Below the pieces are notes generated by a model. That model made no database searches. It had not been told where the DNA came from and saw only the letters and a program-made list of their open reading frames with translations. This document shows positions 1 to 58,015 of a DNA stretch of 59,028 bases, piece after piece (the stretch's first letter is position 1; each line of letters begins with the position of its first letter). The translations under genes and the position numbers were made by a program. Source of the stretch: Polyangiaceae bacterium (GTDB lineage: Bacteria; Myxococcota_A; Polyangia; Polyangiales; Polyangiaceae); NCBI GenBank assembly GCA_050287085.1, contig JBNKBE010000019.1, positions 1 to 59,028 of the forward strand. The letters run 5' to 3'.

Positions 1-56
1 TAAGGCGGAATGCGGGCAGCAGCTGCGCCGGGCGGGGTTGCGCTGATCTCGGCGGT

Positions 57-74
57 GGGTTTTCCTACATGCTC
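57..74 (+). mobile_element. Probable right end of an IS1182-family element (rest lies upstream of the window)
   Basis: GGTTTTCCTACATGCTC matches GGTTTTCCTACGGCCTC (7762-7778), which follows an IS1182 transposase remnant; both are immediately followed by GTTGG. Confidence 0.6.
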
Positions 75-83
75 GTTGGACGG
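75..83 (+). other. Integron core-site-like GTTRRRY (GTTGGAC-GG)
   Basis: Matches GTTRRRY; 8/9 reverse-complementary to CCGTCTAAC at 1064-1072. Confidence 0.5.
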
Positions 84-380
84 ACTCCACCCTTATCGCC
101 GAGAGGGCCGGCATTGCGATGCTCGGTGCACTCCTCTGGGCACGGCGTCACGGCCGGAGCTGTGTTCACTTCGCCCGTCTGAGACGATGGCAAGCTCCCT
201 CCCTAACCATCTTCGCTTCCTAGCGCTGCAAAGGTGCCCGGGTACAGTAGAGCTCGACACCACTGGACTGCTGAAGCTGCGCCTCCGCAGCGAGCTCGTT
301 GGTGTCTCCTCCTCCAATACCCGGGCATGCCTCGACCTCAAAAGTCTTGCCTAGACGAATACAAATGCGAATATACTCGG

Positions 381-623
381 GTGCCGACCACCATCCACAT
401 TCCTGAGACGCTCTTGAGCGAGGTTGACAAACGCGCGAAAACACTGAACCTTTCTCGCAATCGCTTCATCGTGGATGCACTCCAGAAAGCGCTGGCCGAG
501 GAGCCTCCCTGGTCTCCAGCGTTTCTAGAGGCCCTGCAAGACTTCACTCCGCTCGATGCCGACTACGATGTCGCCGCTCTCGTTCGGAAGAACCGCGTCA
601 GCCGAAAGCGCCCGCTGTTTTGA
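381..623 (+). CDS. vapB: Ribbon-helix-helix (CopG-like) antitoxin, VapB type
   Basis: GTG start at 381 within ORF 234..623; TTIHIPETLLSEVDKRAKTLNLSRNRFIVDAL has the RHH pattern; 4-nt overlap with the PIN gene; TATACT at 372-377. Confidence 0.85.
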   Translation: MPTTIHIPETLLSEVDKRAKTLNLSRNRFIVDALQKALAEEPPWSPAFLEALQDFTPLDADYDVAALVRKNRVSRKRPLF

Positions 624-1030
624 AGTACCTACTCGATACCAACACCGTATCCGAACTCATGCGGGGCAACCCCGCCGCCGTCGCAAGACTTCAGGAATGC
701 TCACGCTCTGACGTCGTCATCCCTCAACCCGTTATCGCTGAAGTCGAATTCGGTCTTGCCCTGCTGCCCAAAGGTAAGCGCAAGACTTCGCTACGGCAGC
801 GCTGGACTGTACTAAGCGCCGAACTGCTGCGCGTTGGGTGGACTGACTCCGTCAGCGAGGCCTTCGCACGCATCAAAAGTGGTCTCCACCAGAGCGGCGA
901 GCTTGTCGAAGACTTTGATGTGGCGATCGCTGCGCATGCCCTCGCCTGGGAGCTCTGCCTCGTCTCCAACAACACCCGTCACATGGCACGAGTTCGCGGC
1001 CTTCGGCTGCAAGACTGGACTGCCGAATAG
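620..1030 (+). CDS. vapC: PIN-domain ribonuclease toxin, VapC family
   Basis: YLLDTNTVS, VIAEVEFG, DFDVAIAAHA, LVSNNTRHM..V.GL.LQDW. Confidence 0.93.
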   Translation: MKYLLDTNTVSELMRGNPAAVARLQECSRSDVVIPQPVIAEVEFGLALLPKGKRKTSLRQRWTVLSAELLRVGWTDSVSEAFARIKSGLHQSGELVEDFDVAIAAHALAWELCLVSNNTRHMARVRGLRLQDWTAE

Positions 1031-1063
1031 CTTTTCAGTGCCACACGGAGCAGCCACTGGTCG

Positions 1064-1072
1064 CCGTCTAAC
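1064..1072 (+). other. Integron inverse-core-like RYYYAAC (CC-GTCTAAC)
   Basis: GTCTAAC at 1066-1072; reads GTTAGAC on the minus strand 20 nt after the IS110 stop codon. Confidence 0.5.
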
Positions 1073-1291
1073 TCACGCCCTGAGGCGGTCCGTCAAGCAG
1101 CGTTTGGTGAGTTGGCGGCGTTCTTGAGGAGGGGGGAACGGCGTTGTTGGAGCTGCTTGAGGTGTAGGGACTCGTCGTAGGGCTTGCGAGCGTGCCAGCA
1201 GCGAAAGAGGATGCGAAGCCACTTGAAGGCGAGAGCTCTGACGGCGCGATTGTGTGTGGCGCCGCGTTCACGTTGCTGACGATAGTAGGCA
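1073..1291 (-). mobile_element. IS110-family transposase C-terminal remnant and element end
   Basis: AYYRQQRERGATHNRAVRALAFKWLRILFRCWHARKPYDE is the IS110 C-terminus; stop at 1093; TTGACG overlaps the stop. Confidence 0.88.
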
Positions 1292-2014
1292 CCCGTGGGC
1301 GCCGATCTGGTTGGCATTGTTGAAGGTGTACTTCACCTCGGTATTGGTGTTGCTCACGGTACCGCCGTTGCCACCGCCGTAGTAGGCGATGCGGGCCGTA
1401 CCGGCGCCGGTCCCATTCGTGTTGGCACAACCCCCGTTGTAGTTGTTGTAGCCATACCCGACGTGAGCCAGAACGCCGTTATTGATCGCGTTCTTGTCGC
1501 CGCCGTGGAGCTCTGTCCAGCCGTCGTTGTTGCCGTCTAGCTCTGCGCCGGCAGCAATCTCCTGCTGCGTTGCCAAATTGAGATTGGCCGACAGCTGCAC
1601 AACCGCTACGTCAGCACCACCGGGCATCGCCCAGATGTTTGATGCCACGATGTTTACGGCTGTGCTGGCTTGGTTGCGAACACGAATGTTAGCCGGCGCT
1701 TGAATGTTCGCACCGCTGGTTCCGTCTGCCGACACGCAGTGACGTGCCGTGAGTACGAAGTTGTTACGAAGCAGCGTACCGCTACAGAAACCGGTGCAGG
1801 CCGGGGCCCCACCACAACCCTGCGTTCGCGCGTTGGTAAGCCGCACCTCGCGCGCGTCTTGCGTGCTGGTCCAAGCGGTGCCCAGCACGATTTCCGCTCC
1901 AACGGTCTTCGCTTCAACCGGAGGAGCCTCGAGAGGCACGTCAGCATAGTCGCCGCACCCCGACAATAGCGCCGCCATCAGCGCACAAGTCATCTTAATT
2001 CAAGAGAATTTCAT
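1292..2014 (-). pseudogene. Trypsin-like (S1) serine protease lipoprotein, truncated
   Basis: Lipobox LLSGC; CSGTLL..VLTARHC (catalytic His); DVAVVQL (Asp); breaks at IGAHG just before the expected GDSGG; upstream in-frame ATG at 2014 with AGGAG is cut by TGA at 2000-2002. Confidence 0.85.
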
Positions 2015-2056
2015 AGTCCTGCTCCTGGTCTGCCTTGCTGCCAAGATCCGCTAGAT

Positions 2057-3127
2057 CTAGCGTCTTGGTCTTTTTGCATTTTTGGGGATAGTCCTTCCCA
2101 CCCCAATACAAGTACACATGGTCACCAGTAGTGCCGCCCATGCACTTGGTCGCCCTGCTGCGTCGCTCACTCGACAGGTACACCCGGAAGACGCGTTCGC
2201 ACGACCAACGGTTCTCGCGTCGTGTTCCCTGTCCGCGTCGGCGTCCGCGCCGCTGTCGGCAGCTCCCGCATCCGCGGCCCGGGCGGAGTCTTGCTCTGAG
2301 TCGCCAGCGGCCCCGTTGCCAGCTGGCGCGTCACCGTTGGAGCCCTCCACTCCGTCACTGCCGTTCTCCACGCCGACACTCCCGCCCGGAACGCCGGCGC
2401 CGCCCACACTCACCGGCGCGGCGTTGTCCGGACGAGGTGGCGTTTCGATTGGGTCACCCGCCGCCGGCAGGGTCGGGCCAGAGCCCTCCCCCGGGGTCGC
2501 TGGTGGCGCGTCGTCTTGCCCGACAGGGGGACTCCCCTCGTTCGGTCCCTCCGGGTCGGCTCCGTCATCCGGGTCGACTAATTCGCCGTCCTCGACCTGT
2601 GGGGGCCCGTCCGCCTCGTCGTCTGCCGGCGAGTCGTCAAAGCCGGGGAGGGCCGGTACGTCGTCCTCGTCCACGGAACGGGCGCAGCCGTCGTCCCGGC
2701 ACGTACCGCTGAGGCACTCCGTGTCGACGGTGCAGTCGGCGCCCTCGTTCAAGCAAGCCCCGACGACGGGCGGCAGCGTCACCGGCGCCCACAACTCACC
2801 GTCCAAGGCCAAGATTTCGCCGTGCCGCGCGATGTCGTAGGAAGCCGAGTCGGAGGCTGACGAGAGGGTCAGCTCCTCGTTCTCTAGGGACCAGGTCTCG
2901 AACGACCCGGTCAGCTCGCAGGCCCCGTCGTCATGTACCCGCAGCCAGCGAACGTCCCCACTGTCCAGGAAGTGAACAGCGTCATCCTCCAGCTCCTCAC
3001 AGAGGACGTCTTCGCACCGAACCCAGGCTCCGCACAGGGTGCAGTCGCCCTGCGCCTGGGCCTGCTGAACAGTGAGGAGTATCGCAAGGGCGAGGAAAGC
3101 GCCCCCCGCCTGGTTTCTTGTTGACAC
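2057..3127 (-). CDS. Secreted Cys-rich acidic protein with MYXO-CTERM-like C-terminal anchor
   Basis: Signal peptide, Cys clusters, D/E/G/P-rich linker, SGCTCRV followed by a hydrophobic stretch and basic tail. Confidence 0.7.
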   Translation of the reverse strand: MSTRNQAGGAFLALAILLTVQQAQAQGDCTLCGAWVRCEDVLCEELEDDAVHFLDSGDVRWLRVHDDGACELTGSFETWSLENEELTLSSASDSASYDIARHGEILALDGELWAPVTLPPVVGACLNEGADCTVDTECLSGTCRDDGCARSVDEDDVPALPGFDDSPADDEADGPPQVEDGELVDPDDGADPEGPNEGSPPVGQDDAPPATPGEGSGPTLPAAGDPIETPPRPDNAAPVSVGGAGVPGGSVGVENGSDGVEGSNGDAPAGNGAAGDSEQDSARAADAGAADSGADADADREHDARTVGRANASSGCTCRVSDAAGRPSAWAALLVTMCTCIGVGRTIPKNAKRPRR

Positions 3128-3333
3128 CGGATGGCCACTAGCAATCTCGTCACAGAACTTTCAATGATGTGGAAGAACGAAACGCACAAGCGGTGGCGCA
3201 CCGGACCCGTAGGCGTCGGTCGCTCGACCGGACACCATCGCCGGCAACTCTGGGTCCTGGAAAGGGGGGAGGCTAGCGGCCGTTCTGCCCCCGCAACGGA
3301 GCCCCAGCGGACACCCCCCTATAACCCATCTCA

Positions 3334-4366
3334 TTGCAATTTCTGGATCTCCTGACAAACACACCACGACGCCGGGCGGGCTGCGTAACCCTGGCTCCGT
3401 TGGCCCCGTCGACGGCGGCTTTGCCAACGACTGCCCCGGCGGTGAGGCAGCTGTCCGTCAAACGCCCTGACCGCACCCTGGTCGCCTTCGCGTCCTGCAG
3501 CAGGACTGATCTGGAGCAACCACTCTGGGCCCCGCTGGCGCAAACGGATCCGGACGCCTTCGTATGGCTGGGAGACATCATCTACGCGGACAGTGAGGAT
3601 GTGGGCCTGCACCCCCGCCACTATGCCGCACAAGCCCAAGTCCCGGGCTACGTGGCTTTAAAGAACACCACCCCCATCCTGGGGGTTTGGGACGACCATG
3701 ACTACGGCGCGAATGACGCCGGTGAGGAGTATGTCTCCAAGGTCGAGAGTCAGCAGGCGCTGTTGGACTTCTTGGAGGAGCCGGCGGACAGTCCCCGCGG
3801 CACCCAGGAAGGCGTCTACGCCGCCTACGATGTCGGACAAGTGCCGCGTCAGGTCCGCGTCGTGTTGCTCGATACGCGCTACGGCCGCGGCGCGTCCGGG
3901 ACCCACATGCTCTCCCCGGCGCAGTGGCAGTGGCTTGAAGCCGTGCTGACCAAGTCGCCCGCGCAAGTGCACATCATCGGTTCCAGACTTCCGGTAATTA
4001 CGGACGACCACCCCTATGAGAGGTTGGAAGCACTACCCGAGTGAGAAGGCGCGTCTGCTAGACATACTATCGCGCACCCGGAACCCCATCCTGCTCAGCG
4101 GCGACCGGCACTTTGCGGAGCTTTCAAGACTCGTCCCACCAGAACACTACGTACCGCTCTATGACCTGACCTCAAGCGGCTTCACCCATAGCTACCAGCC
4201 CGAGCAGGAGCCGAACCGCCACCGTGTCGGACAAGGCTACTTTGAGCTGAACTTTGGCGCTATCGATGTGGACTGGGCCAACGCTCAACTCGCGCTCCGG
4301 GTACATGGCCCCGACGGCGTCGTGGGGCTCGATCACCGAGTGCCGCTGTCCTTGCCTGAGCGCTAA
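3334..4366 (+). pseudogene. phoD: Alkaline phosphatase D family protein, frameshifted at about 4021
   Basis: FASC, WLGDIIYAD, WDDHDYG.ND, LLDTRY in ORF 3334..4044; LSGDRHFAE, LTSSG and NFG in ORF 4016..4366; removing one A at 4021 restores HPYEGWKHYP. Confidence 0.88.
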
Positions 4367-4448
4367 ACCAGGGCAAGCGCCCCCGTACGGAAGCCAACAA
4401 CCGAGTCATCACCGACCCGTGTAGAAGCTCTCCCGCAACCAGAACACG

Positions 4449-4730
4449 TCAATGTTCCAACAGGGCGCCGATGTCGCACGTGCTCCATAACTCTCCGGGC
4501 GCCAACTGATCGGCCCCACCCACGAACCGAAGACGAGTCCTGACATCGCGACAAGACGAGGGGGCTTGCGTGTCCTCTAGGATTTCCGGCACCTCGGTCC
4601 AACACCACCCCGGCTCGCAGCCGTCGCACTCGTAGCTCGTCTGACAAGCCTCTAGCGCTGCACCGTCAAGCTGTTTGATATAGCAAACGCGCAGTCCCTC
4701 GTCGTCAAATCGTGGTTCGCCAGGCGGGGA
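4449..4730 (-). pseudogene. 5'-truncated C-terminus of a myxobacterial Cys-rich protein (not in the ORF track)
   Basis: 94-codon open frame lacking an N-terminal start: RVCYIKQLDGAALEACQTSYECDGCEPGWCWTE...C...LRFVGG...TCDIG. Confidence 0.6.
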
Positions 4731-4894
4731 CTAAGAGGCGGACCGCAAGGAGCTGGCGGCACTAACGCCCCGCACCGAGCGGTCCAACGATGTCGCGCGC
4801 CATGGAGATTGGCGCCAAGCCGGGCGCAAGACGTCGACTTCGTTCGAGATACGCCCACTGGACAAGCGCACCGCCAGGCTGCATGATTTCGGGA

Positions 4895-5107
4895 ATGGCA
4901 AAGCCTGCTCTCGACATGCAAACCCTCACTTCGCAGGAGAAGTTGGAGCTGATCGATGACCTGCTGGCGAGCATGGACTTCTCGAATCTGCCGCTCACTG
5001 CCGAGCAGCGGTCCGAGCTCGACCACCGCCTAGATCGACTCGAGAGCGAAGGCCCCGTCGGTATCGCGTGGGAGCAAGTCCACGCCGAGATGAAGTCCGA
5101 CGCGTGA
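4895..5107 (+). CDS. Addiction-module antitoxin (TIGR02574-like)
   Basis: LTSQEKLELIDDLLASM..PLTAEQRSELDHRL...GIAWEQV; GTGA overlap with a RelE/ParE gene. Confidence 0.88.
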   Translation: MAKPALDMQTLTSQEKLELIDDLLASMDFSNLPLTAEQRSELDHRLDRLESEGPVGIAWEQVHAEMKSDA

Positions 5108-5250
5108 GGGTGATACTTCGACGCGAAGCGCGCGTCGACGCCTTGGAGGCATTCCGCTGGTATGAAGACCAAGCGCCTGGGCTCGGTGCTGCATTCCGAA
5201 GTGCGCTCGATCATACAATGACCCGGCTTGGGACTCATGCGAACACGTAC
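5104..5250 (+). pseudogene. RelE/ParE-family toxin, C-terminal half replaced by unrelated DNA
   Basis: MRVILRREARVDALEAFRWYEDQAPGLGAAFRSAL; similarity stops near HANTY; the chimeric frame runs to 5316. Confidence 0.82.
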
Positions 5251-5461
5251 CGAGAACAGCTACACGATTCCAATACGGAAGGGGGTCCTCAGCGTCCGCT
5301 ACTCACGCGAATTTGAAGAACGCTGGCGTGAAGAGTTTCCGTACGCGCTCGACTACGTGCCGGACGGGCCCCATCACTCTGGGCGGTCCTCGATCAGGGG
5401 CTGGCGCTGCCCTCAGTGTTGGAAACTGTTTAGCGAATTTGGACAGCCCGAAGAGCCTTGA
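5250..5461 (+). pseudogene. Orphan C-terminal fragment of an unknown protein with a CxxC motif
   Basis: Protein-like frame ENSYTIPIRK...RGWRCPQCWKLF begins where ParE similarity ends. Confidence 0.4.
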
Positions 5462-5541
5462 TTGGCGTCCACAGCCTGCCTTGGTCTCGGGACTGACTGC
5501 AAATCGAGAATCCGTGCCAAAGTCCCGAATGCCGTGCCCGG

Positions 5542-5640
5542 CTACTTTGATGCCCAGTTGAGTAGCGCCAGGCCCTTGAACCGCTTGAAGTCTCTTGGAT
5601 TGGCGGTCACCACCGGAAGGCCATTCACCGTTGACGCTTC
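5542..5640 (-). pseudogene. VapC/PIN toxin C-terminal fragment
   Basis: VNGLPVVTANPRDFKRFKGLALLNW* is the typical PIN C-terminus. Confidence 0.75.
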
Positions 5641-5823
5641 CGCTTCGTTGATAGGCCCCGTTCGGCGCTCGCTCTTCCCCTTTGGGGATGAGCGCCAGTT
5701 GACGTATTCCGGAAACGCCTCACGCCGCGGCACAACGGCAGGTTGTTGCGCGGACTACGCTTCGTTGCTCGCAGTACGACGTTAACCAACCGTTCTTGCG
5801 AATGCGCCAGTCGCGCTCGACGC

Positions 5824-6759
5824 TTACCAGCGCTTGGCCTCGGCCTCCGGCGCACGTTCTTCGAACACCAACGAACGGAAGTCGAACAACTCTATCGCCT
5901 CTTCCGTCGCCAACCGCGACACACTACCCGCTCCCAGGCGATACATGCGCCCACTTCGTGCGAACACCACGTCGTCCCTGTCCCATGCCGCCCAGTCGCT
6001 TCGCCCCAACCCCGCGGTCATGCCCGTGGCTTCGTCGACCAACGAGTGACGCAACACGTACCACGGACCGTCCTGCTCGTGAATCCCATCCAACGTTCGG
6101 TAGAGCGCGTGCCCCTTTCCGACTTTCGTTCCGGGCGCCGACTGCGCGTGAACCTCACCCCCCTCGGCCGAATACCAAATCGGCGATCCTCGTCGATTCT
6201 TCTTCCACGTCGCGGTGCGGATGCGTCGCCACCCATCTCTTCGGTCCCGCACAACCGCGATTGGATCATCCTCCCCGCGTCCAGGCCTCTCCCCGAAAGG
6301 GACGACCCCAAAGGATTTGGGTAGCTGAAACCCTTCTGCCAGTTCCGTCTGCCCCTCGGGGTGGTTCAGTGCCAGCCGTCTCTCGGACTCGAATAGGCCT
6401 CCGCCACCCCACGCGTCTCCCTTCGGCCACATCGCCAACGCCGTTAGATTTGGCGGACGACTGATTGCTGTCCAACTTCCGCGACCGCTCTTCCAGTTCG
6501 CAGCGAAGTACACGAGCAGCTCTCCCGATGGCGACAGGTCACAACGACGTTCATATATTCTACCGTGCAGCCATTGCCCCACCGTGAACTGGTCGCGCGC
6601 CATGTCCCACTTCACGAGGGCAACTCGCTTCGAGGGCCCCCGTCGAAATATGACCGCGGTTCGCGCCTTCCGCGCCGTCAATGCGTACAACCGAACTGCT
6701 GCGTGCCCCATAGCTGGCAACGGTAGCATCGTTGTTTCACCGATGACCAGCGGCCTCAT
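5824..6759 (-). CDS. Conserved hypothetical protein (true start may be a later Met)
   Basis: 311-aa ORF with AVIFRRGPSK, GQWLHGRIYERRCDLSPSG and WGGGGLF motifs; Trp/Gly-rich, possibly propeller-like. Confidence 0.75.
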   Translation of the reverse strand: MRPLVIGETTMLPLPAMGHAAVRLYALTARKARTAVIFRRGPSKRVALVKWDMARDQFTVGQWLHGRIYERRCDLSPSGELLVYFAANWKSGRGSWTAISRPPNLTALAMWPKGDAWGGGGLFESERRLALNHPEGQTELAEGFQLPKSFGVVPFGERPGRGEDDPIAVVRDRRDGWRRIRTATWKKNRRGSPIWYSAEGGEVHAQSAPGTKVGKGHALYRTLDGIHEQDGPWYVLRHSLVDEATGMTAGLGRSDWAAWDRDDVVFARSGRMYRLGAGSVSRLATEEAIELFDFRSLVFEERAPEAEAKRW

Positions 6760-6852
6760 TTCGGGGAGCCGAGCTCTCCGTTTTCCAGCACCGATACGCC
6801 AACGACAAGAGCGGGCGCCGCGCGTAGGACCCCAACGCCAGCGCGAGAGAGT

Positions 6853-6949
6853 CAGTCATCGTCATGGGGACCTCCATCCGCGACCGCGTCCTGTGCGTCG
6901 TCCACGTCGAACGCGGCGAATCATCAGCGCCAGACCCGCTACCCGCACC
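6853..6949 (+). pseudogene. BrnT-family toxin fragment with an internal frameshift or deletion
   Basis: VIVMGTSIRDRVLCVVHVERG then, in another frame, RIISARPATR. Confidence 0.75.
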
Positions 6950-6954
6950 GCCCC

Positions 6955-7065
6955 GACTTCGACGATTGCCAGCTCGCCACCCTTCGTCGCTACATCAACG
7001 CACTTGGCGGCCACCTCGAACTCGTCGCCAGATTCGGCGACAAGCGCATCACGGTCGTTGGAGTC
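6955..7065 (+). pseudogene. XRE/HigA-type antitoxin C-terminal fragment
   Basis: Frame not in the ORF track: DCQLATLRRYINALGGHLELVARFGDKRITVVGV. Confidence 0.72.
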
Positions 7066-7094
7066 GCACCACCGAGTGATGAATCCGACAGCGC

Positions 7095-7778
7095 CTGCTC
7101 GAACCTGCTTGCGCCGCTCATCAAAGCGACACGCCAAGAGTTTGCCGAGCTGGACGGCGGGGGCGACGTCTTTTCGCGGGCCAAAGTCACCGCTGACAGC
7201 GGCTTTCATAACAAGGTCGTTTTGGCTGCAATCGAGAAGACCGATGCTGATGCGTACATTGCTGCTCGCGACTACCGTCGGCATGACCGGGCTTTTACGA
7301 GCCCACAACGCCACAAGCGGCGCAGCAATAAGAGCGAGCCTTGAAGCGTCGGAGAGAACGTGAAGCGCGCCCGTCCGCCGAGCAACGACTATTTGTGTCG
7401 CGGACTTCTAGTACGATGAGCAGAGAGATCTGCTCATCTGTCCCGCCGGACATCGGCTCTACAAGAGCGGCACGAACAGGCTCTTCATGGGTTATCGCGC
7501 TGACCACTTCAAGGCGCCAAAGACCGCGTGCCGAGATTGTGTTCACCCTCCGTGATCAGCGCCAGGTGAATGCCCAATGGCAGCTTTTCTCACTGGTCCA
7601 CAACGTCGAAAAGCTCACGGGAGGGCAGCGGGCTTGAACGCTCTTGCCGGGCGGTGGCCGCGGCGCCTACTCCGGCACGGGGCGCGCCAGCGCCAAACGG
7701 GACAGATTTGATGGCAATCGCCCTCGTAGCCGTGCATGGGCTTACGCTGCGCTCGTCCGCTGGTTTTCCTACGGCCTC
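7095..7778 (+). mobile_element. IS1182-family transposase pseudogene (3' part) with right end
   Basis: VTADSGFHN..DAYIA.RDYRRHD..F; LICPAGHRL..ACRDC; FTLRDQRQVNAQWQLFSLVHNVEKL* at 7637; contains stops, frameshifts and an internal deletion near 7540. Confidence 0.85.
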
Positions 7779-8180
7779 GTTGGGAGGACTACGCACTTCG
7801 GGGCATGCGTTGGAGGGCCAGAGTGACGTCACTGCAGATGCGCCGCCGAGCCATGCTGGCCCGACTCGAAACGGCACGGAAGCCCATCCCGTACCCGGCT
7901 CACCAGCCGCGCTTTGTTCCCGGTAATCTTGGGCCTCACTCGCAATCGAGACGGCCTTGGCCCTGGTGGCGATGGACTCCCATATCACCCCACGAATCGA
8001 TGAGGGGGTGGCCATTTTTCCCAACGTATCGGCGATTGTCCGAAAGGTCGTCACACGGGTGGAACTGATCGCTCGCTGGGCCGCAGCAATTTCGATGCTG
8101 CGGTCTCAGACATGCCGGTGAGTGCTGTTCTTGCTTGTCACCTCTTCAAGCGCTATGATTCCGCCTGCCGAGGAGAATCC

Positions 8181-8384
8181 ATGTCCCGCACCAGCACATC
8201 AGGAACTTACGAGGAACTCGTAGCCGAGGTGAAGAGGCTGCAGAGCGCAGGCGCGATTCCGATCCGCCCCACGCAAGAGCAGCGCGTTAGCTGGGCCTAC
8301 GGTCAGACCAAGTTGGAGAACAGCGACGTCACTCGTGAGGACGCGGTTCGAGCGGTTGAGGCACGTACGCAAAGCGCGCAATGA
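8181..8384 (+). CDS. Small putative antitoxin partner of the Fic protein
   Basis: AGGAG RBS; EQRVSWAYGQTKLEN resembles the Fic-inhibitory (S/T)xxxE(G/N) helix; ATGA overlap with fic. Confidence 0.7.
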   Translation: MSRTSTSGTYEELVAEVKRLQSAGAIPIRPTQEQRVSWAYGQTKLENSDVTREDAVRAVEARTQSAQ

Positions 8385-9013
8385 TCAGTTCTCCGCTGCT
8401 CTGCCGGCCAGAAGACAAAGCGAGGCTGGAAAACGAGAACGCGGTTGATCAACTTGATCTGATATCGCATCTGGTTAACGACTACCAGATTGACGCGCTC
8501 CGGGAGTCCCACGTCCTTGAGCTGCAGAGCTTGGCGATTCAGAACATCTACCCGTGTGGTGGCACGTACCGGGATGCGCGCGTCGCGGTGAGGATCGCGA
8601 ACAGTCCACATGAGATTCCGGAACCCGCGCTTGTCAAATCGCTCGTTGCGGAAGCGATCGACTGGATAAACGCGAAGAAAGAGGAATGCTCGCCGTTGGA
8701 ACGGGCTGCGTATGCACTCTGGCGGTTCAACTGGATACATCCCTTTCGTGGGGGCAATGGGCGAACCTCACGCGCGATCGCGTATCTCATCATTTGCATG
8801 TCGGAGCGCTGCATGTTGCCCGGTACTCCCGTAATGCCGGACCTGATATACGAGCGGCGCGACAAGTACATCGACGCACTTCAGGCTGTCGACGCATCGG
8901 CACTGATATCACCCGAAGCCCCCGACTTCACCGCGATGTCCAGCTTCTTGCGCGAAGTAATAACTACTCAGCTAGCCAGCGTCATCAGCCACCTATCTCA
9001 TCATCCCAGCTGA
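8381..9013 (+). CDS. Fic/Doc family protein
   Basis: WIHPFRGGNGRTSR motif; GTYRD. Confidence 0.93.
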   Translation: MISSPLLCRPEDKARLENENAVDQLDLISHLVNDYQIDALRESHVLELQSLAIQNIYPCGGTYRDARVAVRIANSPHEIPEPALVKSLVAEAIDWINAKKEECSPLERAAYALWRFNWIHPFRGGNGRTSRAIAYLIICMSERCMLPGTPVMPDLIYERRDKYIDALQAVDASALISPEAPDFTAMSSFLREVITTQLASVISHLSHHPS

Positions 9014-9019
9014 CCGCCT

Positions 9020-9303
9020 TCTGGATCGTCTTTGGCCCCGCTCGGATGCCACGCCCTGCGATAGCGCGCCAGCGTCTGCGGGTTCACGGGTAGATGACGA
9101 AGAAGTCGTGCTCCAACAGCGCCGAGACTAGCGGCCCCCTCGAAAGCTCAAGGCACACGGCAATGGGCTTCCCCTCGAATCGCTGCCTCAACTGCCTTGC
9201 CCATTCCTCCAGCTCCACGGGCCCGTGGGGCACCACGCTCTGCTCAACCCGCTCGGCGCCCGCAGCCTTCAGGCATACGTCGTGCTTCTTGTCTCCCCAG
9301 TCG
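9020..9303 (-). mobile_element. IS110-family transposase N-terminal (DEDD) remnant, frameshifted
   Basis: DWGDKKHDVCL...IAVCLELSRGPLV..YP then shifted VNPQTLARYRRAWHPSGAKDDP. Confidence 0.88.
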
Positions 9304-9712
9304 AAGCAGAAAGGTCTGCTCATCTGTCCCGCCGCACATCAGCTCTGCAAGAGCGGAATGCACAGGCGCTTCATGGGTTATCGTGCTGACCACTTCAAGG
9401 CGCCAAAGACCGCGTGCCGAGCTTGTGGTCTGCGCGAGAAGTGTCTTCGCAACCCAAAGACCCGCCCCACAACGGCAAGTGACGATCCTCAAGGGCCGCG
9501 AAGGCACCAAGCCCGCGCCCCCCGCGAAGCGCAGTGGGCCCGCAGAGCGCATGCGCTTCAAGTTTGATACGCCGCTGGGGCGAAAGCTCTACAGAACGCG
9601 CATGGGCGCCGTCGAACGCGTCTTTGCCAACCTCCAGAACAAGAGCCTGCGCCGCTTCACCCTCCGTGGACAGCGCAAGGTGAATGCCCAATGGCAGCTT
9701 TTCACCCTGCTT
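9303..9712 (+). mobile_element. Second IS1182-family transposase remnant
   Basis: Visibly near-identical to 7420-7600; LICPA..ACRACGLREKC, YRTRMGAVERVFANL, FTLRGQRKVNAQWQLF. Confidence 0.88.
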
Positions 9713-9733
9713 CTGGCGTGGTAGCGTCCACCC

Positions 9734-9949
9734 ATGTTGCTCGACGCGCCCCACCGCGTCCAACAAATCCAGACCGAGGCGCAGCGCCGTCTCGGTGGGG
9801 AAGGACGATTGCTGACCGCGTGCCGCATGAGCCAAACCCTCCGCCAACTCGCCTTCGAGCGTATCCAGCGAACTGCTCCCGACCTCTCCGGACCCGCAGT
9901 GCTGGAGCGCCTCGTTGCCGAACTCTATAGCATCCGTCGAGACGCCTGA
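9734..9949 (+). CDS. Small helical protein resembling partners of minimal nucleotidyltransferases; possibly an orphan antitoxin
   Basis: Q..AQRRL.GE.RL..A..MS...R.LA...I....P..S......LV.ELY pattern, recognised by eye. Confidence 0.45.
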   Translation: MLLDAPHRVQQIQTEAQRRLGGEGRLLTACRMSQTLRQLAFERIQRTAPDLSGPAVLERLVAELYSIRRDA

Positions 9950-10045
9950 GCAGGTCATCCACCGCGGCACGGCACCCACTCGACGCCCGCGCGACACTGC
10001 AACTCTCCGCCCTGGGGCGGCGCCTTTCGAGTGAAGCACACGCGG

Positions 10046-10336
10046 TCAGTCGCGTGCCGCCCTTTTCCTATAGGCGTCGACCATCTCCTTCGTAACGTCT
10101 TTGTCGTAACAGAGCGGCGCGGCCCCGCCGGGCCTGGAGTATGCGCTTCGCTTGCCACATCTCCGCCCTGCTCGATCCGTATCATACGGACACGGGCAGC
10201 TCCCAGCGTACGAAGCACGTGACTCGCCGATCAGGATCTTTCGAATCTCCCCGTCAGAAAGGTTCTTCGCCCCTGCCTTGGCTGCGGTGACCACGCACAG
10301 GACCAGACCGATGACTCGCCACGTTTCTTGCCACAC
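10046..10336 (-). CDS. Small secreted Cys-motif conserved hypothetical protein
   Basis: GGAGG RBS, signal peptide, CPCPY..DRAGRRCGKRSAYSRPGG..PLCY. Confidence 0.8.
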   Translation of the reverse strand: MWQETWRVIGLVLCVVTAAKAGAKNLSDGEIRKILIGESRASYAGSCPCPYDTDRAGRRCGKRSAYSRPGGAAPLCYDKDVTKEMVDAYRKRAARD

Positions 10337-10593
10337 AGCTCGTACCTCCCCCGCGTTTCGCTTCCTGCAACGAGCCCGAGCCGCTCAGAGCAGCCTGCAT
10401 ACTCGCCGTGCCCCTTCGAAGCCAGGGCGACTGTCCTAGCCCCGCCCGCTATTAGCTGCAACCGTTCTTGTCGCACGTAACGACGGGTTGAGTCTGATCC
10501 ACATGATGCAACCACTCTTCTAGGATTGGAGGAGGACGTGTTGTACGACTTCAAGATCACCCACCGACCCCGGAAGCAGGAATCCCGCCAAAC

Positions 10594-10965
10594 ATGAGTT
10601 CGCCTTCCATTGAACTTGAACCGAGCAGCCTGGCCACCGCTGAGCACTACGTTTGGGGTGACGGGTGCGATGGCTGGCACCTGCTCAACCTCCCTGACCT
10701 CAGTGTGATCGAGGAATTGGTTCCCCCGGGTGGTGCCGAGACTCGCCACTACCATTGCCGGGCCAGACAGTTCTTCTACATCCTCGAAGGTCAAGCCACC
10801 TTGGAGTTTAGCGACCGCGCCATCGTATTCTCCTCCGGGCAAGGCGTTCACGTCGCTCCCGGCGTTCAGCATCGCTTTCGCAACAACTCCGCGTCGCCGG
10901 TGCGCTTTCTGGTGATCTCCTCCCCGACCACTCGTGGCGATCGAGCCAACACAGCCGACCCCTGA
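10594..10965 (+). CDS. Cupin-domain protein
   Basis: AEHYVWGDGCDGWHL, HYH..ARQFFYILEG, PGVQH. Confidence 0.9.
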   Translation: MSSPSIELEPSSLATAEHYVWGDGCDGWHLLNLPDLSVIEELVPPGGAETRHYHCRARQFFYILEGQATLEFSDRAIVFSSGQGVHVAPGVQHRFRNNSASPVRFLVISSPTTRGDRANTADP

Positions 10966-11130
10966 CTCTGGATGTGCTCGCTCCGCGCAGCGCTTCGCCG
11001 ATCCTTCTTGAGGATCTGGCTTGCGCCGGTACGACTTCGATCATTTCTATTACCGTTCCGCTCGCATGCCGCTTTCCATAGCTGCAGACTGCACCGCTGA
11101 CGCATGCAGACTTTCACCGAGCGTCCAGCT

Positions 11131-34851: not shown

Positions 34852-34914
34852 GCACCACTTCCTGAAGCACCACTTCCTGGAGCACCACTTCCTGGAGCAC
34901 CACTTCCTGGAGCA
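34852..34914. repeat. 15-bp tandem repeat, 4 copies (GCACCACTTCCTGGA)
   Basis: Directly visible; no spacers. Confidence 0.95.
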
Positions 34915-45613: not shown

Positions 45614-47119
45614 CTACGGCTCGATGACTTCGATGCTCACGCTAACGCCCATGTCGGGGTAGGTATAGCCGTCATCTACCGGTTGGACCTTGCCGTCCTC
45701 GTCCGTGCCAATATTCGTGCCGCCCTGGCGCGGTGCCTGTTCATCGCCAACACCTGGGGCCTGATTGACCTCGGTGCCCGCGTCCCACAACATCAGACCT
45801 TCGAGTTCACCTTCTACGGGCATATCCTCCTGATCGAAGAGAGCAACACCTTCCGGACCAAAGGCGAAGAACAGATCGTTGCTCTGGACGAACATGGTGG
45901 CCAACGAAAGCCTGTCACCAGGAGTCGCCGAAAACTCGAACTCGTAGCTGTGTCCGGGCAGCAACGGCCCAGCTTCGTCTCCGCCATCGGGCTTCGCGAA
46001 GACGCCCCGCGCAGAACCAACATCGCTTAGACTCTCTAGCAGCGACATTGGGCTGCCATCCTCCGCCAATGACTCAAGGCCGTCGCCGCGATCCGCCTCG
46101 CCATCCGAGAACAGCGGTTCGTCACCACTGTGGACCACAAAGACGCCTGGAGCCAAGGGGCTGACTACTCCGGTCATCTCTTCAGCAGTTGCAAAGAGGG
46201 CGGCGGGATTGCCGTCCTCAGCTAGGGGCTCCAGGCCTTCCGGGGCTTCCTTGCCGGCCTCGAACAACATCGCCTCAGAACCGACAACCCACGTACCCGG
46301 CGCAAAAGGAACAGCCGTCGGATCGCCCGCGGCGGGCATCAACGTATCGTCAGTCGAAACATTGGTGATCGTTAGCGTGAAGTGCGAGCCCTCTGCAGCC
46401 AACGTAACGCTGATCATCTCGTCCAAGGTGGGGAGCCCATCGGGGTCTACCAGCCGCACCTCCACAGCGGGATCGGCGTCCCCCACATCGATCCCCCCCT
46501 GCCGGGGTGCTTGATTCGGGCCTGCACCGGGCTCCTCATCAGCCTCGGTGCCCGCGTCCCAGAGGGCAAAGAGCGACGTCACGTCGCCCGTCATGGGCGT
46601 CCCCTCATCGTCGTACAATGCGATGCCCATGGGGTCCATGGCTGCCGCAAACCAATCGTTGCTCTGAACCATCATCGTCGCGAAGTTGAGACGATGGCCC
46701 GGCGCAGCGTCAAACGAGAACGCGTAGCTATCCCCTGGGAGGAGCGGCCCCGGTGCATCAGCCCCGTCTGGGGTGTTGAACACGCCGGACGCCATGAAGG
46801 GCTTGGCGGGGATCTCGTTGCTGACGGTCACGCGAAAGCGCGTCTCGGTGGCCCCAGTCGTGTCGTCGCCAGTCGTGTCGTCCCCGGTCGTGTCGTCCCC
46901 GGTCGTATCGTCGCCAGTCGTGTCGTCCCCGGTCGTGTCGTCCCCGGTCGTATCGTCGCCAGTCGTATCGTCGCCAGTCGTATCGTCCCCGGTCGTGTCG
47001 TCCCCGGTCGTGTCGTCGTCTGCGACGGTCTCAGCTTTCTCGTCGGAATCGTCACTGCTGCAGGCCAGCGCCAACGTGGAAGCAAGCGCCCCCACACCTA
47101 GTATTCTTGCAATAAGCAT
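45614..47119 (-). CDS. Lipoprotein with two spondin_N-like domains and a (DDTTG)11 linker
   Basis: GGAGGAG RBS; lipobox ALAC; two copies of PLLPG.SY.F.F.A.PG.RL..ATM.VQSND.F...WDAGTE..Q.PRQ. Confidence 0.92.
   Translation of the reverse strand: MLIARILGVGALASTLALACSSDDSDEKAETVADDDTTGDDTTGDDTTGDDTTGDDTTGDDTTGDDTTGDDTTGDDTTGDDTTGDDTTGATETRFRVTVSNEIPAKPFMASGVFNTPDGADAPGPLLPGDSYAFSFDAAPGHRLNFATMMVQSNDWFAAAMDPMGIALYDDEGTPMTGDVTSLFALWDAGTEADEEPGAGPNQAPRQGGIDVGDADPAVEVRLVDPDGLPTLDEMISVTLAAEGSHFTLTITNVSTDDTLMPAAGDPTAVPFAPGTWVVGSEAMLFEAGKEAPEGLEPLAEDGNPAALFATAEEMTGVVSPLAPGVFVVHSGDEPLFSDGEADRGDGLESLAEDGSPMSLLESLSDVGSARGVFAKPDGGDEAGPLLPGHSYEFEFSATPGDRLSLATMFVQSNDLFFAFGPEGVALFDQEDMPVEGELEGLMLWDAGTEVNQAPGVGDEQAPRQGGTNIGTDEDGKVQPVDDGYTYPDMGVSVSIEVIEP
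46853..47017 (-). repeat. 15-bp coding tandem repeat, 11 copies (DDTTG)
   Basis: Directly visible; only synonymous variation. Confidence 0.97.
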
Positions 47120-52220: not shown

Positions 52221-52240
52221 ACCAACGCCGTTCTCTTGCC

Positions 52241-52340
52241 CTCACCATCACAATCGAAGCCCCACCGCTACAATCGAAGCCCCACCACTACAATCGAAGC
52301 CCCACCACTACAATCGAAGCCCCACCACTACAATCGAAGA
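52241..52340. repeat. 20-bp tandem repeat, 5 copies (CCCACCACTACAATCGAAGC)
   Basis: Directly visible; the last copy overlaps the stop codon of the convergent gene. Confidence 0.95.
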
Positions 52341-55075: not shown

Positions 55076-58015
55076 ATGTCGACAACAGAAAGAGTTCGAA
55101 GGACTCAGCCCCGATCGTCGCTAGCGCTGCGTCCACTGCTCGCCGCAGCCATGCTGGCGGTGCCGTGGAGCTGCAAGGGCAAGACGGAAAGCGCGCCAGT
55201 GATCGCATCCGTCTCGAACACTGCCAGCAACCCCGCGCCGTCAGCGGAGCTCCGTCCGGCGCTCGCCGAACCCCGCTGGACAGCCCCGCGACCCCACGAC
55301 CCACCCAGCCTTGGGCGCTTCGTCCAAGACAACCTGGCCAACCCACACGAAACCAAGGTACGGCTGGTGACCCACCACGTCAGTGTCGCAATCCGTGACG
55401 GCCTTGCCAGGACCCACGTCGTGGAGGTGTTTCGCAATGACGGTCCGAATGCGGCCACGGGTAGCGTGCTTGTGCCCTTCCCCCCTGGAGCCAGCTTGGC
55501 AGGCGTCTCCGCCGGCGCAGAAGGGGAACTGCACGCCAGTCGCTACCTGCCACGAACCAAGAAGGCTTCCGCCAACGCCGCCCCGCTGCGGGTTCATCAC
55601 AGCGGTCCGAGCCTGATCCTCGGAGCGCTTGTAGTGCCCGCCGAGGGCTCGTGGCAACTCGAATTCGACTACGATCAACGCCTCTCCGAAGGCAACGCGG
55701 GCTTTTCGTACCGCTACCCGCTGGCAACGCTCCAGCCGCTAGAACTGGACGAGTTCAGCTTTCGAGGCTTCGTCACCGACCGGCGACGACTCCCTCACTC
55801 CCCACACGCCGAACCGCAAGAACTAGCTACCACAACGGAAGGCGGCGGCCTGTCCTTCTCGATGACCCGCCGCGGATTTACACCCGTTCAGGACCTGATC
55901 CTGCGCTTCCAGGTCGCTCACCGTTCGCCCCTGACTGGGGTGTTTCATCCACAGGTGACAGGAGGCGCAAACGCAGGACAGAACTGGGGCTACTTCGTCG
56001 TCGAGCTGCCCGTGACCACGCCGCAGACCTTCCTGCGACCTCCCTCCGGGCTATGGTCGCGCAGTCTGCTCTTGGATCGATCCCACGCACGCTTCGCCGA
56101 AGCTGCGGATACAGACGCCCAACTGGCGCAGCTGTGGCTGGACGAGCTGACTCCAGACGAGCCCTTTGCCCTGATCACCTGTCACACGGAGTGTGAAGCC
56201 TTTCCGGAAGCAGGCACCGTCGCGGCAAGCGATGACAACGTTCACGACGCCCTCAGATGGCTACGAGCGCGTGGCCCCCGACGGGGTGCGTCCAACTTGG
56301 CCGCCGGACTTGCGCGCGCCTACGCCGCCGTAGCCAACGCGGAGCGTGCACAAATAGCCTACGTGGGCAGCGGCAAGGCGACGGTGGATGAAACGTCACC
56401 GGAAGGCATTCTCGCGCGCCTTGCGGCTCCCGACAAGGGCGAGCTCGATCTTCGCTTTCTAACCACAGGCGTCGCGGATGGCACGTTGGTGCCTGTGCTG
56501 GCAAAACACCTCGATGCTTTTCACACCCACGTTAGCGACTACGACCCCAACTTGCGCGCTGGCCGGGCCTTTATCGGAGCCCTCTTCAGCAGCCGGATCA
56601 CCGACTTGGCGCTCATCGCCCCAGCCACAGTAGAAGCCAACCTCCGCGCGGTTTCTACTGCCGTGCCAGAACACGAACGCGTGTTGGTAACAGGGCGCTA
56701 CTCCGAGCCCGGTACGTCGCCCTTCTCGCTACGAGGACGACTTGCGGGGGAGCTTTTCAGCGCGCATTTTGCCATCGACCTCACCTCCCAAGGCCGTGAC
56801 AACCCCCTCGTGCCCCGGCATTGGGCGCTTCAGGAAGTTGCCAAACTCCAAACGCAACCGCTGCGCGACGTGCGTTTGGAGCTCATCGACCTAAGCCGCA
56901 AGTACCATATTGCGAGCGTGGCGACGCGACTGGAGCTTGAAGGAGGAGGACCACTTTGGTGGCAGGAGCCACCACAATACGGGGACGCTTCCCAGTTCAA
57001 GCAGCGCTCCCAGGAGTTCTTCCCGCCGAAGGGGTACTCATCCACCCTCGCCACTCCCCCGAAGGGGGTCACCGCCAGCACGCAGGTCGAGCACGTCCTG
57101 GAGAAGGAGCTCTCGAACGCGGACGCCCCGCATCTCGAACAACTCTGTGCCGCGCACATGGCACAATACCCCGACAACTCAGGGGCACTCGCTTGGGCGG
57201 CGCGGGAACTCCTCGGCCACGGGCGACTGCAAGCAGCACAGGACGCTGCTTCCAGGCTACTCGAGCTGGAACCCGACAACCTATTTGCTCTGCTAACCCA
57301 CGCAGAAGCAAGCGCCGCCTTGGGCGAAGCAGCGTTCGCGAGCTATTCGCTCTCCGCTGCAGCGGGCTCCGCTCGAAGCGATCCACAACTGCACCTGAGA
57401 GCGGCAAAGGCTCTGGGCACGCTCGGCCACCACGCGGAAAGCTGTGCCCACTATCGCTCCGCGTCTTCATTGTTAAGCCATAGCGATACGTTTGCGCTAC
57501 CGCCGAGGTGCGCGCAGGTGGCCTCCCCGGCCGAACCCGCATCCCCAGCGGACAATGCCACCTCACCCACACCACTGCCGCAACCTGCACTCGCTGGCTG
57601 GTTCACTGCCGAGGTCGAGTGCATCGATCCAGACGGCTGCCCCTACCCCGTTATCGGCACACCGGAGGGGCACTGGCTAAGCCCGTATTCACCGCCTCCC
57701 GATACCAACCCAAGCGCACGGAGCGTGGCCCTCGGAACGCCGCCAACACAAGGCACCTATCGCGTTCTAGTGGTCGGGGGACGCGCCGGAACTCGAGGAC
57801 GGTTGACGGTGAACGCGAGGGGAAGCCACCAAAGCGTCGACTTCACGTGGCAGCCGAACCGGCCGCTGCAGCTGACGTCACTCATTGGGGTCGCATCGAA
57901 TAGCCCGCTCACCACACCAGCCCCGAGCCCAGCAGTCCCGAGCCCAGCAGCCCCGAGCCCAGCAGCCCCGAGCCCAGCAGCCCCGAGCCCAGCAGCCCCC
58001 CCTGCCTCACCCTAG
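55076..58015 (+). CDS. VIT plus degenerate vWA plus TPR-like protein, probable lipoprotein
   Basis: HHVSV.IRDG.ART.V.EVFRN (VIT); LLLDRS; helical Ala-rich repeats; Pro-rich tail. Confidence 0.82.
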   Translation: MSTTERVRRTQPRSSLALRPLLAAAMLAVPWSCKGKTESAPVIASVSNTASNPAPSAELRPALAEPRWTAPRPHDPPSLGRFVQDNLANPHETKVRLVTHHVSVAIRDGLARTHVVEVFRNDGPNAATGSVLVPFPPGASLAGVSAGAEGELHASRYLPRTKKASANAAPLRVHHSGPSLILGALVVPAEGSWQLEFDYDQRLSEGNAGFSYRYPLATLQPLELDEFSFRGFVTDRRRLPHSPHAEPQELATTTEGGGLSFSMTRRGFTPVQDLILRFQVAHRSPLTGVFHPQVTGGANAGQNWGYFVVELPVTTPQTFLRPPSGLWSRSLLLDRSHARFAEAADTDAQLAQLWLDELTPDEPFALITCHTECEAFPEAGTVAASDDNVHDALRWLRARGPRRGASNLAAGLARAYAAVANAERAQIAYVGSGKATVDETSPEGILARLAAPDKGELDLRFLTTGVADGTLVPVLAKHLDAFHTHVSDYDPNLRAGRAFIGALFSSRITDLALIAPATVEANLRAVSTAVPEHERVLVTGRYSEPGTSPFSLRGRLAGELFSAHFAIDLTSQGRDNPLVPRHWALQEVAKLQTQPLRDVRLELIDLSRKYHIASVATRLELEGGGPLWWQEPPQYGDASQFKQRSQEFFPPKGYSSTLATPPKGVTASTQVEHVLEKELSNADAPHLEQLCAAHMAQYPDNSGALAWAARELLGHGRLQAAQDAASRLLELEPDNLFALLTHAEASAALGEAAFASYSLSAAAGSARSDPQLHLRAAKALGTLGHHAESCAHYRSASSLLSHSDTFALPPRCAQVASPAEPASPADNATSPTPLPQPALAGWFTAEVECIDPDGCPYPVIGTPEGHWLSPYSPPPDTNPSARSVALGTPPTQGTYRVLVVGGRAGTRGRLTVNARGSHQSVDFTWQPNRPLQLTSLIGVASNSPLTTPAPSPAVPSPAAPSPAAPSPAAPSPAAPPASP
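57918..57999 (+). repeat. 15-bp coding tandem repeat (SPAAP), about 5.5 copies
   Basis: Directly visible. Confidence 0.9.

Follow-up and report, generated by a model that had tools for sequence, protein, structure and literature searches.

We analysed the first 59 kb (59,028 nucleotides, in the following the window) of contig JBNKBE010000019.1 of a Polyangiaceae bacterium (assembly GCA_050287085.1). This genome is designated G000 and its contigs carry C-numbers, the contig of the window being C19. The start of the window harbors toxin-antitoxin (TA) genes together with remnants of two insertion sequence (IS) families, IS1182 and IS110, and this report concerns the site at which both families meet these genes. 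Its sequence supports the assignment of the site at both IS junctions as an integron attC.

The window starts inside the right end of an IS1182-type element (1..74, plus strand), which is cut by the contig edge, carries its terminal inverted repeat at about 59-74 and shows 95-99% identity to ends on C29, C58, C65 and C68. The read depth of this end is 44 versus about 16 for the remainder. It is followed by GTTGGAC (75..81, plus strand), which fits the attC R' core GTTRRRY (PMC7923331) and whose GTT at 75 is the triplet flanking the IS1182 element as a repeat on either side. The downstream genes encode a VapB-like RHH antitoxin (381..623, plus strand, start codon inferred; Pfam RHH_1 22.9 bits, cut-off 20.5) and a VapC-like PIN-domain toxin (620..1030, plus strand; Pfam PIN E 1.6e-9; NCBIfam VapC E 3e-22, under its cut-off). 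The R'' core GTCTAAC (1066..1072, plus strand) closes this stretch, the remainder of its attC being lost, and the first 10 nucleotides (nt) agree with the reverse complement of the end in 8 of 10 positions. Judged by these cores, 75-1072 is an integron cassette (VapBC) between R' and R''. Directly at R'' follows the right end of an IS110 element on the minus strand (1073..1290), with the last approximately 65 codons of its recombinase (about residues 358-421) and cut by a deletion (NF033542 E 0.0012; tblastn and blastn against full elements). The junction 1072/1073 matches the junction found in IS110 relatives.

A second unit begins with the 3' part of another, diverged IS1182 copy (7102..7778, plus strand; about residues 275-421 and 498-527), which shows frameshifts and internal deletions and has retained its right end, with the repeat core ending at 7778. 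The R'-like core GTTGGGA (7779..7785, plus strand; 6/7 fit to GTTRRRY) is followed by a small open reading frame (ORF, 8181-8384) and a Fic-domain gene (8381-9013; Pfam Fic E 1.1e-18), both on the plus strand within 8181..9013. Among 250 other genomes of the order, four have this pair as well. Next come an internal, N-terminal piece of an IS110 recombinase on the minus strand (9020..9302; about residues 17-113, one frameshift; Pfam DEDD_Tnp_IS110 E 4.5e-5), with deletion joints on both sides, and an internal, C-terminal piece of a third IS1182 copy without right end (9303..9712, plus strand; about residues 380-516; Pfam DDE_Tnp_1_6 E 5.8e-11), which is 90% identical to 7419-7544 over 126 nt. 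As the latter piece is internal, 9302/9303 is a deletion joint and not a meeting of two ends.

A preliminary description, made from the letters of the window, had noted a GTT behind both IS1182 right ends (74 and 7778), the RHH and PIN genes after the first end, the small ORF and the Fic gene after the second, and constant orientations. All of this was found again, the IS1182 pieces of the window lying exclusively on the plus strand and both IS110 pieces on the minus strand. The likeness of 25/31 nt between the two junctions holds in the register 58-88 versus 7762-7792 (24/31 for 57-87). It was taken to extend beyond the GTT, and it does; the attC R' consensus accounts for it, as shown by the words downstream of right ends in the relatives described below. 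IS110 sequences are present at 1073 and 9020 as stated, but they represent different halves of the element, the second without a natural end. Likewise, IS110 and IS1182 sequences meet at 9302/9303, but as internal pieces. The architecture was described as repeating; its pieces and orientations are real, but the pattern is clean only once, and IS1182 does not directly follow the first unit again, since 5.5 kb with unrelated genes in both orientations separate this unit from the next IS1182 piece (6771). Contigs of the only sequencing run found to contain window DNA, which is possibly the source of the assembly and so not independent, extend unbroken over 50-7528, 7506-9414 and 9392-11000; the joints of the window are therefore not simple assembly joins.

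Target sites of the two element families

Relatives of the IS1182-type element were collected by a genome scan that gave 72 loci in 44 assemblies, ranging from Polyangiaceae, Binatia and Nitrospiraceae to marine Gammaproteobacteria. None was found in 100 genomes of the family or 400 of the phylum that were sampled, where repeats are often unassembled, so that this does not mean absence. Full-length relatives show the Pfam architecture DUF772 + DDE_Tnp_1 + DDE_Tnp_1_6. Their best model is NF033551 with 262 and 261 bits, and since these scores lie just under the cut-off of 270 for IS1182, the elements are named IS1182-type (divergent clade). Both ends carry terminal inverted repeats of about 16 bp. 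The residues D142, D306 and E484 are invariant in 28 transposases and are read as the putative DDE triad. Intact examples include the loci L021-L030, with L027 discussed below.

The ends of these elements contact GTT almost without exception. When located by the inverted-repeat pattern alone, 51/53 left and 52/54 right ends in the 72 loci do so, with a background of 1.5%. The GTT thus counted lies outside the inverted repeats on both sides (103/107 ends), and every end is at GTT in 32 of the 36 assemblies with a readable end. Downstream of the 54 right ends, the words GTTAGGC (16), GTTAGCC (7) and GTTGGAC (3) prevail. Upstream of the left ends, attC-like arms are about eightfold enriched: after dropping 4 of 46 located left ends near contig edges, 31 of 42 reach an arm score of at least 10, compared to 93 of 983 control CGTT sites. 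In a set of 19 sites hand-selected from these, with the structure taken from one member, 89.7% of the cells are paired and at most 37% when the structure is slid; the sites of this set show two unpaired bases, and 11 of 18 pairs show two-sided change. Integrase-like matches occur within 7 IS1182-type loci.

The same picture was obtained in G000 itself for ends accompanied by IS-internal sequence. Seven of eight left ends stand after GTT, and six of these seven follow an arm pair scoring 13.2-15.8, the seventh scoring 6.0. All 10 right ends found with the same pattern are followed by GTT, as are two more decayed right ends. The remaining pattern hits in G000 lack IS-internal sequence, and one on C31 is ambiguous. 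Just past the window, a decayed IS1182 right end followed by GTTAGAC was observed on the minus strand (C19:61050-61135). The length of the repeat can be read from a copy divided between C18:1-74 and C30:1-967, which splits a sensor-kinase-like gene at GTT, with a short upstream hairpin and no full attC. As the frame of this gene stays open across a single GTT (313 + 319 codons), the repeat is 3 bp. In summary, the clade inserts at the GTT of R', in the sense of the cassette, and repeats this GTT.

An identical sequence would be left behind if the IS1182 element were excised in circular form, its ends joined through GTT, and placed in attC by the integron integrase. The fixed orientation and the two-sided GTT fit a crossover at the G-TT point of the integrase, as integron recombination is commonly understood, and an integrase over cut-off is present in 3 of 5 host genomes tested. 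On the other hand, terminal inverted repeats and the residues D142, D306 and E484 point to a self-sufficient transposase. In addition, a related genome carrying both element families (G647) has three copies that are 99-100% alike while its best integrase match is in pieces and under cut-off, a weak point given the incomplete genome. We regard placement by the integrase as unlikely and consider transposition by the element's own enzyme in the following.

For IS110, the set of relatives comprises 80 metagenome loci of at least 592 matches and a few others. Relatives were detected in 6 of 400 sampled genomes, where unassembled repeats again mean that this does not show absence elsewhere. A plasmid search gave three weak matches without annotation or barely annotated. 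Two relatives reach 160.6 and 175.4 bits with the recombinase model (cut-off 140), the window fragments alone staying below it. The subfamily has an enzyme of 421 amino acids (aa), about 250 nt of non-coding sequence upstream and a right end only about 25-45 nt past the stop codon. It is assigned to the IS110 type and not to the IS1111 type because of the enzyme length and the position of the RNA. GTT follows 45 of 69 readable right ends. In a quick, midpoint-rooted tree of 74 of the 80 rows, the 12 best matches of the N-terminal piece of the window fall inside an 18-row clade with 15 GTTRG targets, and the C-terminal piece has its own right end abutting the R'' core.

The element was removed in silico from the 42 of 79 loci that have both ends. 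This rebuilt attC-like arms in 12 of 16 GTTRG targets and 16 of 25 GTT targets, and in 0 of 17 non-GTT targets, the latter partly by construction. The element lies antisense, between R'' and the spacer. In the relatives, the upstream region of about 250 nt is predicted to fold into a two-loop RNA (z -6.4). Its putative right guide agrees with 4-5 of 5 target bases in 28 of 32 elements (mean 4.5 versus 2.4 after shuffling) and the left guide with 6.6 of 9 versus 4.4 (n=33), with 0 of 5000 shuffles as high in either case. These values refer to 37 of 81 elements in which the target loop could be parsed, the 44 dropped ones including most of the attC clade, and to elements that are related and not independent. 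The guides of the dropped attC-clade elements can still be read individually. In sister branches, guides and targets differ, the AGCGG class making up 14 of 74 rows. One branch of this class with matching guides (L135, L143, L148-L150, L157, L160, L163, L168, L172) represents a natural retargeting series. The preliminary description had proposed comparing bridge RNA loops with the flanks of the core site in intact IS110 copies, and the predicted guides do match the attC flanks in the relatives. By analogy with the IS110 mechanism, this RNA would direct the elements to their targets.

The observations on both families bear on the simplest alternative, namely that IS families piled up in a dispensable island in which TA genes were retained, orientation and GTT being due to chance or part of the IS end. 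Heavy decay, the mixed gene orientation in 1290-6770 and the absence of an attC after the Fic gene would fit such a pile-up. It conflicts with the position of GTT outside the inverted repeats in 103 of 107 ends, with the enriched arms upstream and with IS110 guides that track their targets. For the two families this explanation is refuted; for the second unit of the window alone it may hold. As an account of the region as a whole it is very unlikely.

A probable decayed cassette array and doubly occupied sites

The locus L027 in G647 contains both elements in intact form. Here a gene end is followed by R'', a whole antisense IS110, 91 nt of attC body ending in GTT, a whole sense IS1182 and GTTAGGC. 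Without the IS110, the site measures 98 nt and has an arm score of 14.8. In L191, from the same genome, an R''-IS110 piece runs straight into the terminal 89 nt of an IS1182, followed by GTT, a close analogue of the joint 9302/9303. On the four G647 contigs with both families, all IS1182 pieces except one run opposite to the IS110 pieces, and IS110 right ends within IS1182 loci are antisense to the IS1182 element in 5 of 5 cases.

From the meeting of both families, it had been suggested that a divergent IS110/IS1182 composite moves as a unit and, in a new system of cassette capture, serves as the recurring spacer. The intact back-to-back pair in L027, the collapsed pair in L191 and the joint 9302/9303 of the window agree with such a unit. 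Most mapped copies, however, are solo: in G647, 1 of 8 left ends of each family is paired, and none of 16 IS110 copies at GTTRG targets on metagenome contigs has an IS1182 at the far arm. Moreover, the DNA between the pair in L027 is attC body, and G000 has many IS1182 ends and no other copy of the window IS110. A composite is thus extremely improbable, and the capture system is an ordinary integron. A shared polar target explains the pattern. This agrees with the other option considered at first, in which both families hit opposite arms of one recombination site: the site is attC, with IS1182 at R' and IS110 beside R''.

G000 possesses an integron integrase (TIGR02249 440 bits, cut-off 265; C15:169027-169968), and complete attC sites are present elsewhere in the genome. 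The contig of the integrase gene ends in cassettes, attC and an IS1182 left end. It thus ends inside an IS left end, as several others do, and the window contig starts inside an IS right end. The region C15:169027-173029 contains an intact-looking integrase and two or three cassettes, its attC closing in the IS1182 left end at the contig edge. Two further cassette arrays were observed at C29:17600-29400 and C35:1100-10300, their attC sites being long (140-160 nt) and related; the arrays also contain several TA cassettes besides IS1182 remnants with deletions. Of the IS at C29:22337, only the last approximately 90 nt are left. Many deletions affect the IS remnants in the window and on C29, C35, C38 and C1.

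Taken together, we consider the region, with a probability of roughly 0.86, the decayed remains of an integron cassette array into which two attC-seeking insertion sequences moved independently. The IS1182-type DDE element inserts at the right arm of attC, in cassette direction, and leaves GTT on both sides, presumably by a 3-bp staggered cut and probably recognizing the attC hairpin or its CGTT foot. It is known that attC folds as a single strand (PMC11023631). The attC upstream of the insertion retains both arms and GTT and would probably still recombine, the IS becoming the front of the next cassette. For the function of attC, the GTT/AAC triplet and the arm structure matter most. Recombination of these attC-like sites by IntI is predicted from their sequence. 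The IS110 element, with a bridge RNA predicted upstream, inserts in its relatives in the opposite direction directly beside R'', a junction retained in the window at 1072/1073, and by splitting R'' from the remaining attC should disable the site. Since attC is polar, fixed orientations and the recurring order of IS1182 end, GTT, genes, R'', antisense IS110 and sense IS1182 would result. Two insertions in one site would stand back to back about 90 nt apart, and later deletions, as the intact and collapsed examples elsewhere suggest, may have trimmed them to the joint 9302/9303. Double occupancy in the second unit has the standing of an inference, because neither an R'' nor an IS end is found there.

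Several observations weigh against this interpretation. In the window, a complete attC (R'', L'', L', R') is absent, only the R'' core at 1066-1072 and a relic at 5605-5748 being found, and no more than one cassette has boundaries at either end. The genes in 1290-6770 lie on both strands and are not typical cassettes. In the second unit, no R'' core is present between the Fic gene and the IS110 piece, no IS end exists at 9020 or 9303, and no attC was seen by eye after the Fic gene in three relatives ending at the same length; the Fic pair is thus at most a candidate cassette. A link between the window and the integrase contig is hypothetical. Among the relatives, 11 of 42 left ends score below 10. 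In G000, the insertion in the sensor-kinase-like gene, with an arm score of 6.0, demonstrates that non-attC targets occur. One of the eight left ends in G000 stands after ATT, and one decayed right end lacks GTT. The IS110 relatives are only 56-68% identical to the window copy, which has lost its guide region, and the best matches of its C-terminal piece are mixed and not resolved by BLAST. Finally, a weight-matrix scan for attC gave 544 matches versus 804 in the reversed-genome control and was not used as evidence.

Going further, we tentatively propose a scenario that is possible, though we would not call it probable. An IS1182-type lineage spread from Polyangiaceae to marine Gammaproteobacteria might read the folded attC with its strand polarity, insert harmlessly at the crossover triplet, ride on the next cassette and be spread by the integrase. 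The RNA-guided IS110 might disable the other arm, so that the attC niche is split and doubly occupied sites seed the collapse of arrays.

The remaining features of the window are more heterogeneous. A gene for a trypsin-like peptidase (1268..1993, minus strand; Pfam Trypsin E 2.3e-8), which is not cassette-oriented, runs with its 3' end into the first IS110 piece. An acidic, low-complexity exported protein without Pfam match is encoded at 2057-3127; its C-terminal tail resembles what we take to be MYXO-CTERM. At 3334-4366, a frameshift splits a PhoD-like phosphatase gene. Next to an R''-like word, a third IS110 right end may have left a relic (4729..4749, minus strand); the evidence for it is weak, with a 15/15 match to the right end of L093 (E 0.05), and is one of three matches of the motif in G000. 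Then follow an addiction-module antitoxin gene with a truncated partner gene (4895..5316, plus strand; Pfam Unstab_antitox E 3.3e-13, partner without Pfam match) and the degenerate attC relic mentioned above (5605..5748, plus strand), which consists of the variable region and the right arm and is 83% identical over 82 nt (E 1e-16) to the attC at C35:1167-1318. A short N-terminal IS1182 fragment (6771..6835, plus strand; blastn 76%, tblastn E 2e-5) precedes a BrnT-like toxin fragment (E 0.017, under cut-off), the only relevant match in a six-frame Pfam scan of 56 of 85 intergenic frames. Between the IS1182 pieces, at 6849-7080, the BrnT-like fragment is fused to what is presumably the end of a helix-turn-helix antitoxin gene; this stretch probably represents collapsed TA cassettes. 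An R''/L''-like word at 8991-9014 does not qualify as an attC arm, as it lies inside the end of the Fic coding sequence, which has normal length in relatives. Further downstream, a small cysteine-rich ORF of secreted type was noted at 10046-10336, to which a stretch at C15:65469-65556 shows 90% similarity. Short tandem repeats (15 or 20 nt), most of them coding-like, occur at 34852-34911, 46807-47047, 52240-52339 and 57915-58014, and a short-repeat array on AACC-rich words is present at C15:37719-37958.

Comparison with known attC-targeting elements

The integron is a known system, and one of the two targeting habits seems to be unpublished in the literature searched, which lacked most subscription papers. 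Within it, no description of IS1182 targeting attC was found, and for bridge-RNA IS110 elements attC appeared only within a reference list. A paper on integrons of halophilic bacteria reportedly describes many IS1182 elements in and near arrays and may anticipate part of our observations. In practice, elements of this kind break assemblies at attC and are likely to conceal integron arrays from detection programs. As an example of them, the window is poor and decayed.

The region resembles the sedentary chromosomal integron arrays and clusters of attC sites lacking integron integrases (CALINs) described in PMC11023631 in having an integrase in the genome, R' and R'' around a TA cassette and IS elements in the array. 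In those arrays, IS3/IS911 elements lie inside cassette genes, whereas here both elements lie in attC itself and the window is badly decayed. Targeting of attC by IS1111-type elements and group IIC introns is established (PMC11187229, PMC11616780, PMC12444791, PMC3971601, PMC7923331, PMC11208160). The IS1111-attC group with ISKpn4, ISPst6, ISPa25 and ISPa21 shares with the present IS110 an RNA-guided DEDD recombinase acting at one end of attC (PMC11187229, PMC11616780). These enzymes have 330-350 aa and their non-coding region lies downstream (PMC11187229), in contrast to 421 aa, about 250 nt upstream and a very short right end here. An upstream two-loop RNA with target and donor guides, directed to repeated DNA, is known from IS621 and ISEc21 (PMC11208160, PMC11187229); in our case the target is R'' of attC and the RNA is predicted from sequence. 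Group IIC-attC introns also use the R'' side of attC and lie opposite to the cassettes, as IS110 does here (PMC7923331), but they are retroelements with an unrelated enzyme and mechanism.

For the IS1182-type element, the closest comparison is IS1272/TnSha1 (PMC4923244), a member of the IS1182 family that inserts at hairpin-forming DNA. IS1272 uses terminators without sequence consensus in both orientations, with partial deletion of the stem and no duplication, whereas the clade described here has a fixed CGTT target, a single orientation and a 3-bp repeat. The known attC-homing elements, the IS1111-attC group and the IIC-attC introns, use RNA. If our interpretation is true, attC would have been reached by more independent routes, namely by a DDE element that works with protein alone and is almost absolutely specific for the crossover triplet, and by an IS110-type element at the other arm. 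This would offer a simple way of testing if DNA hairpins can be read by a transposase and if IS elements travel from host to host as passengers of cassettes.

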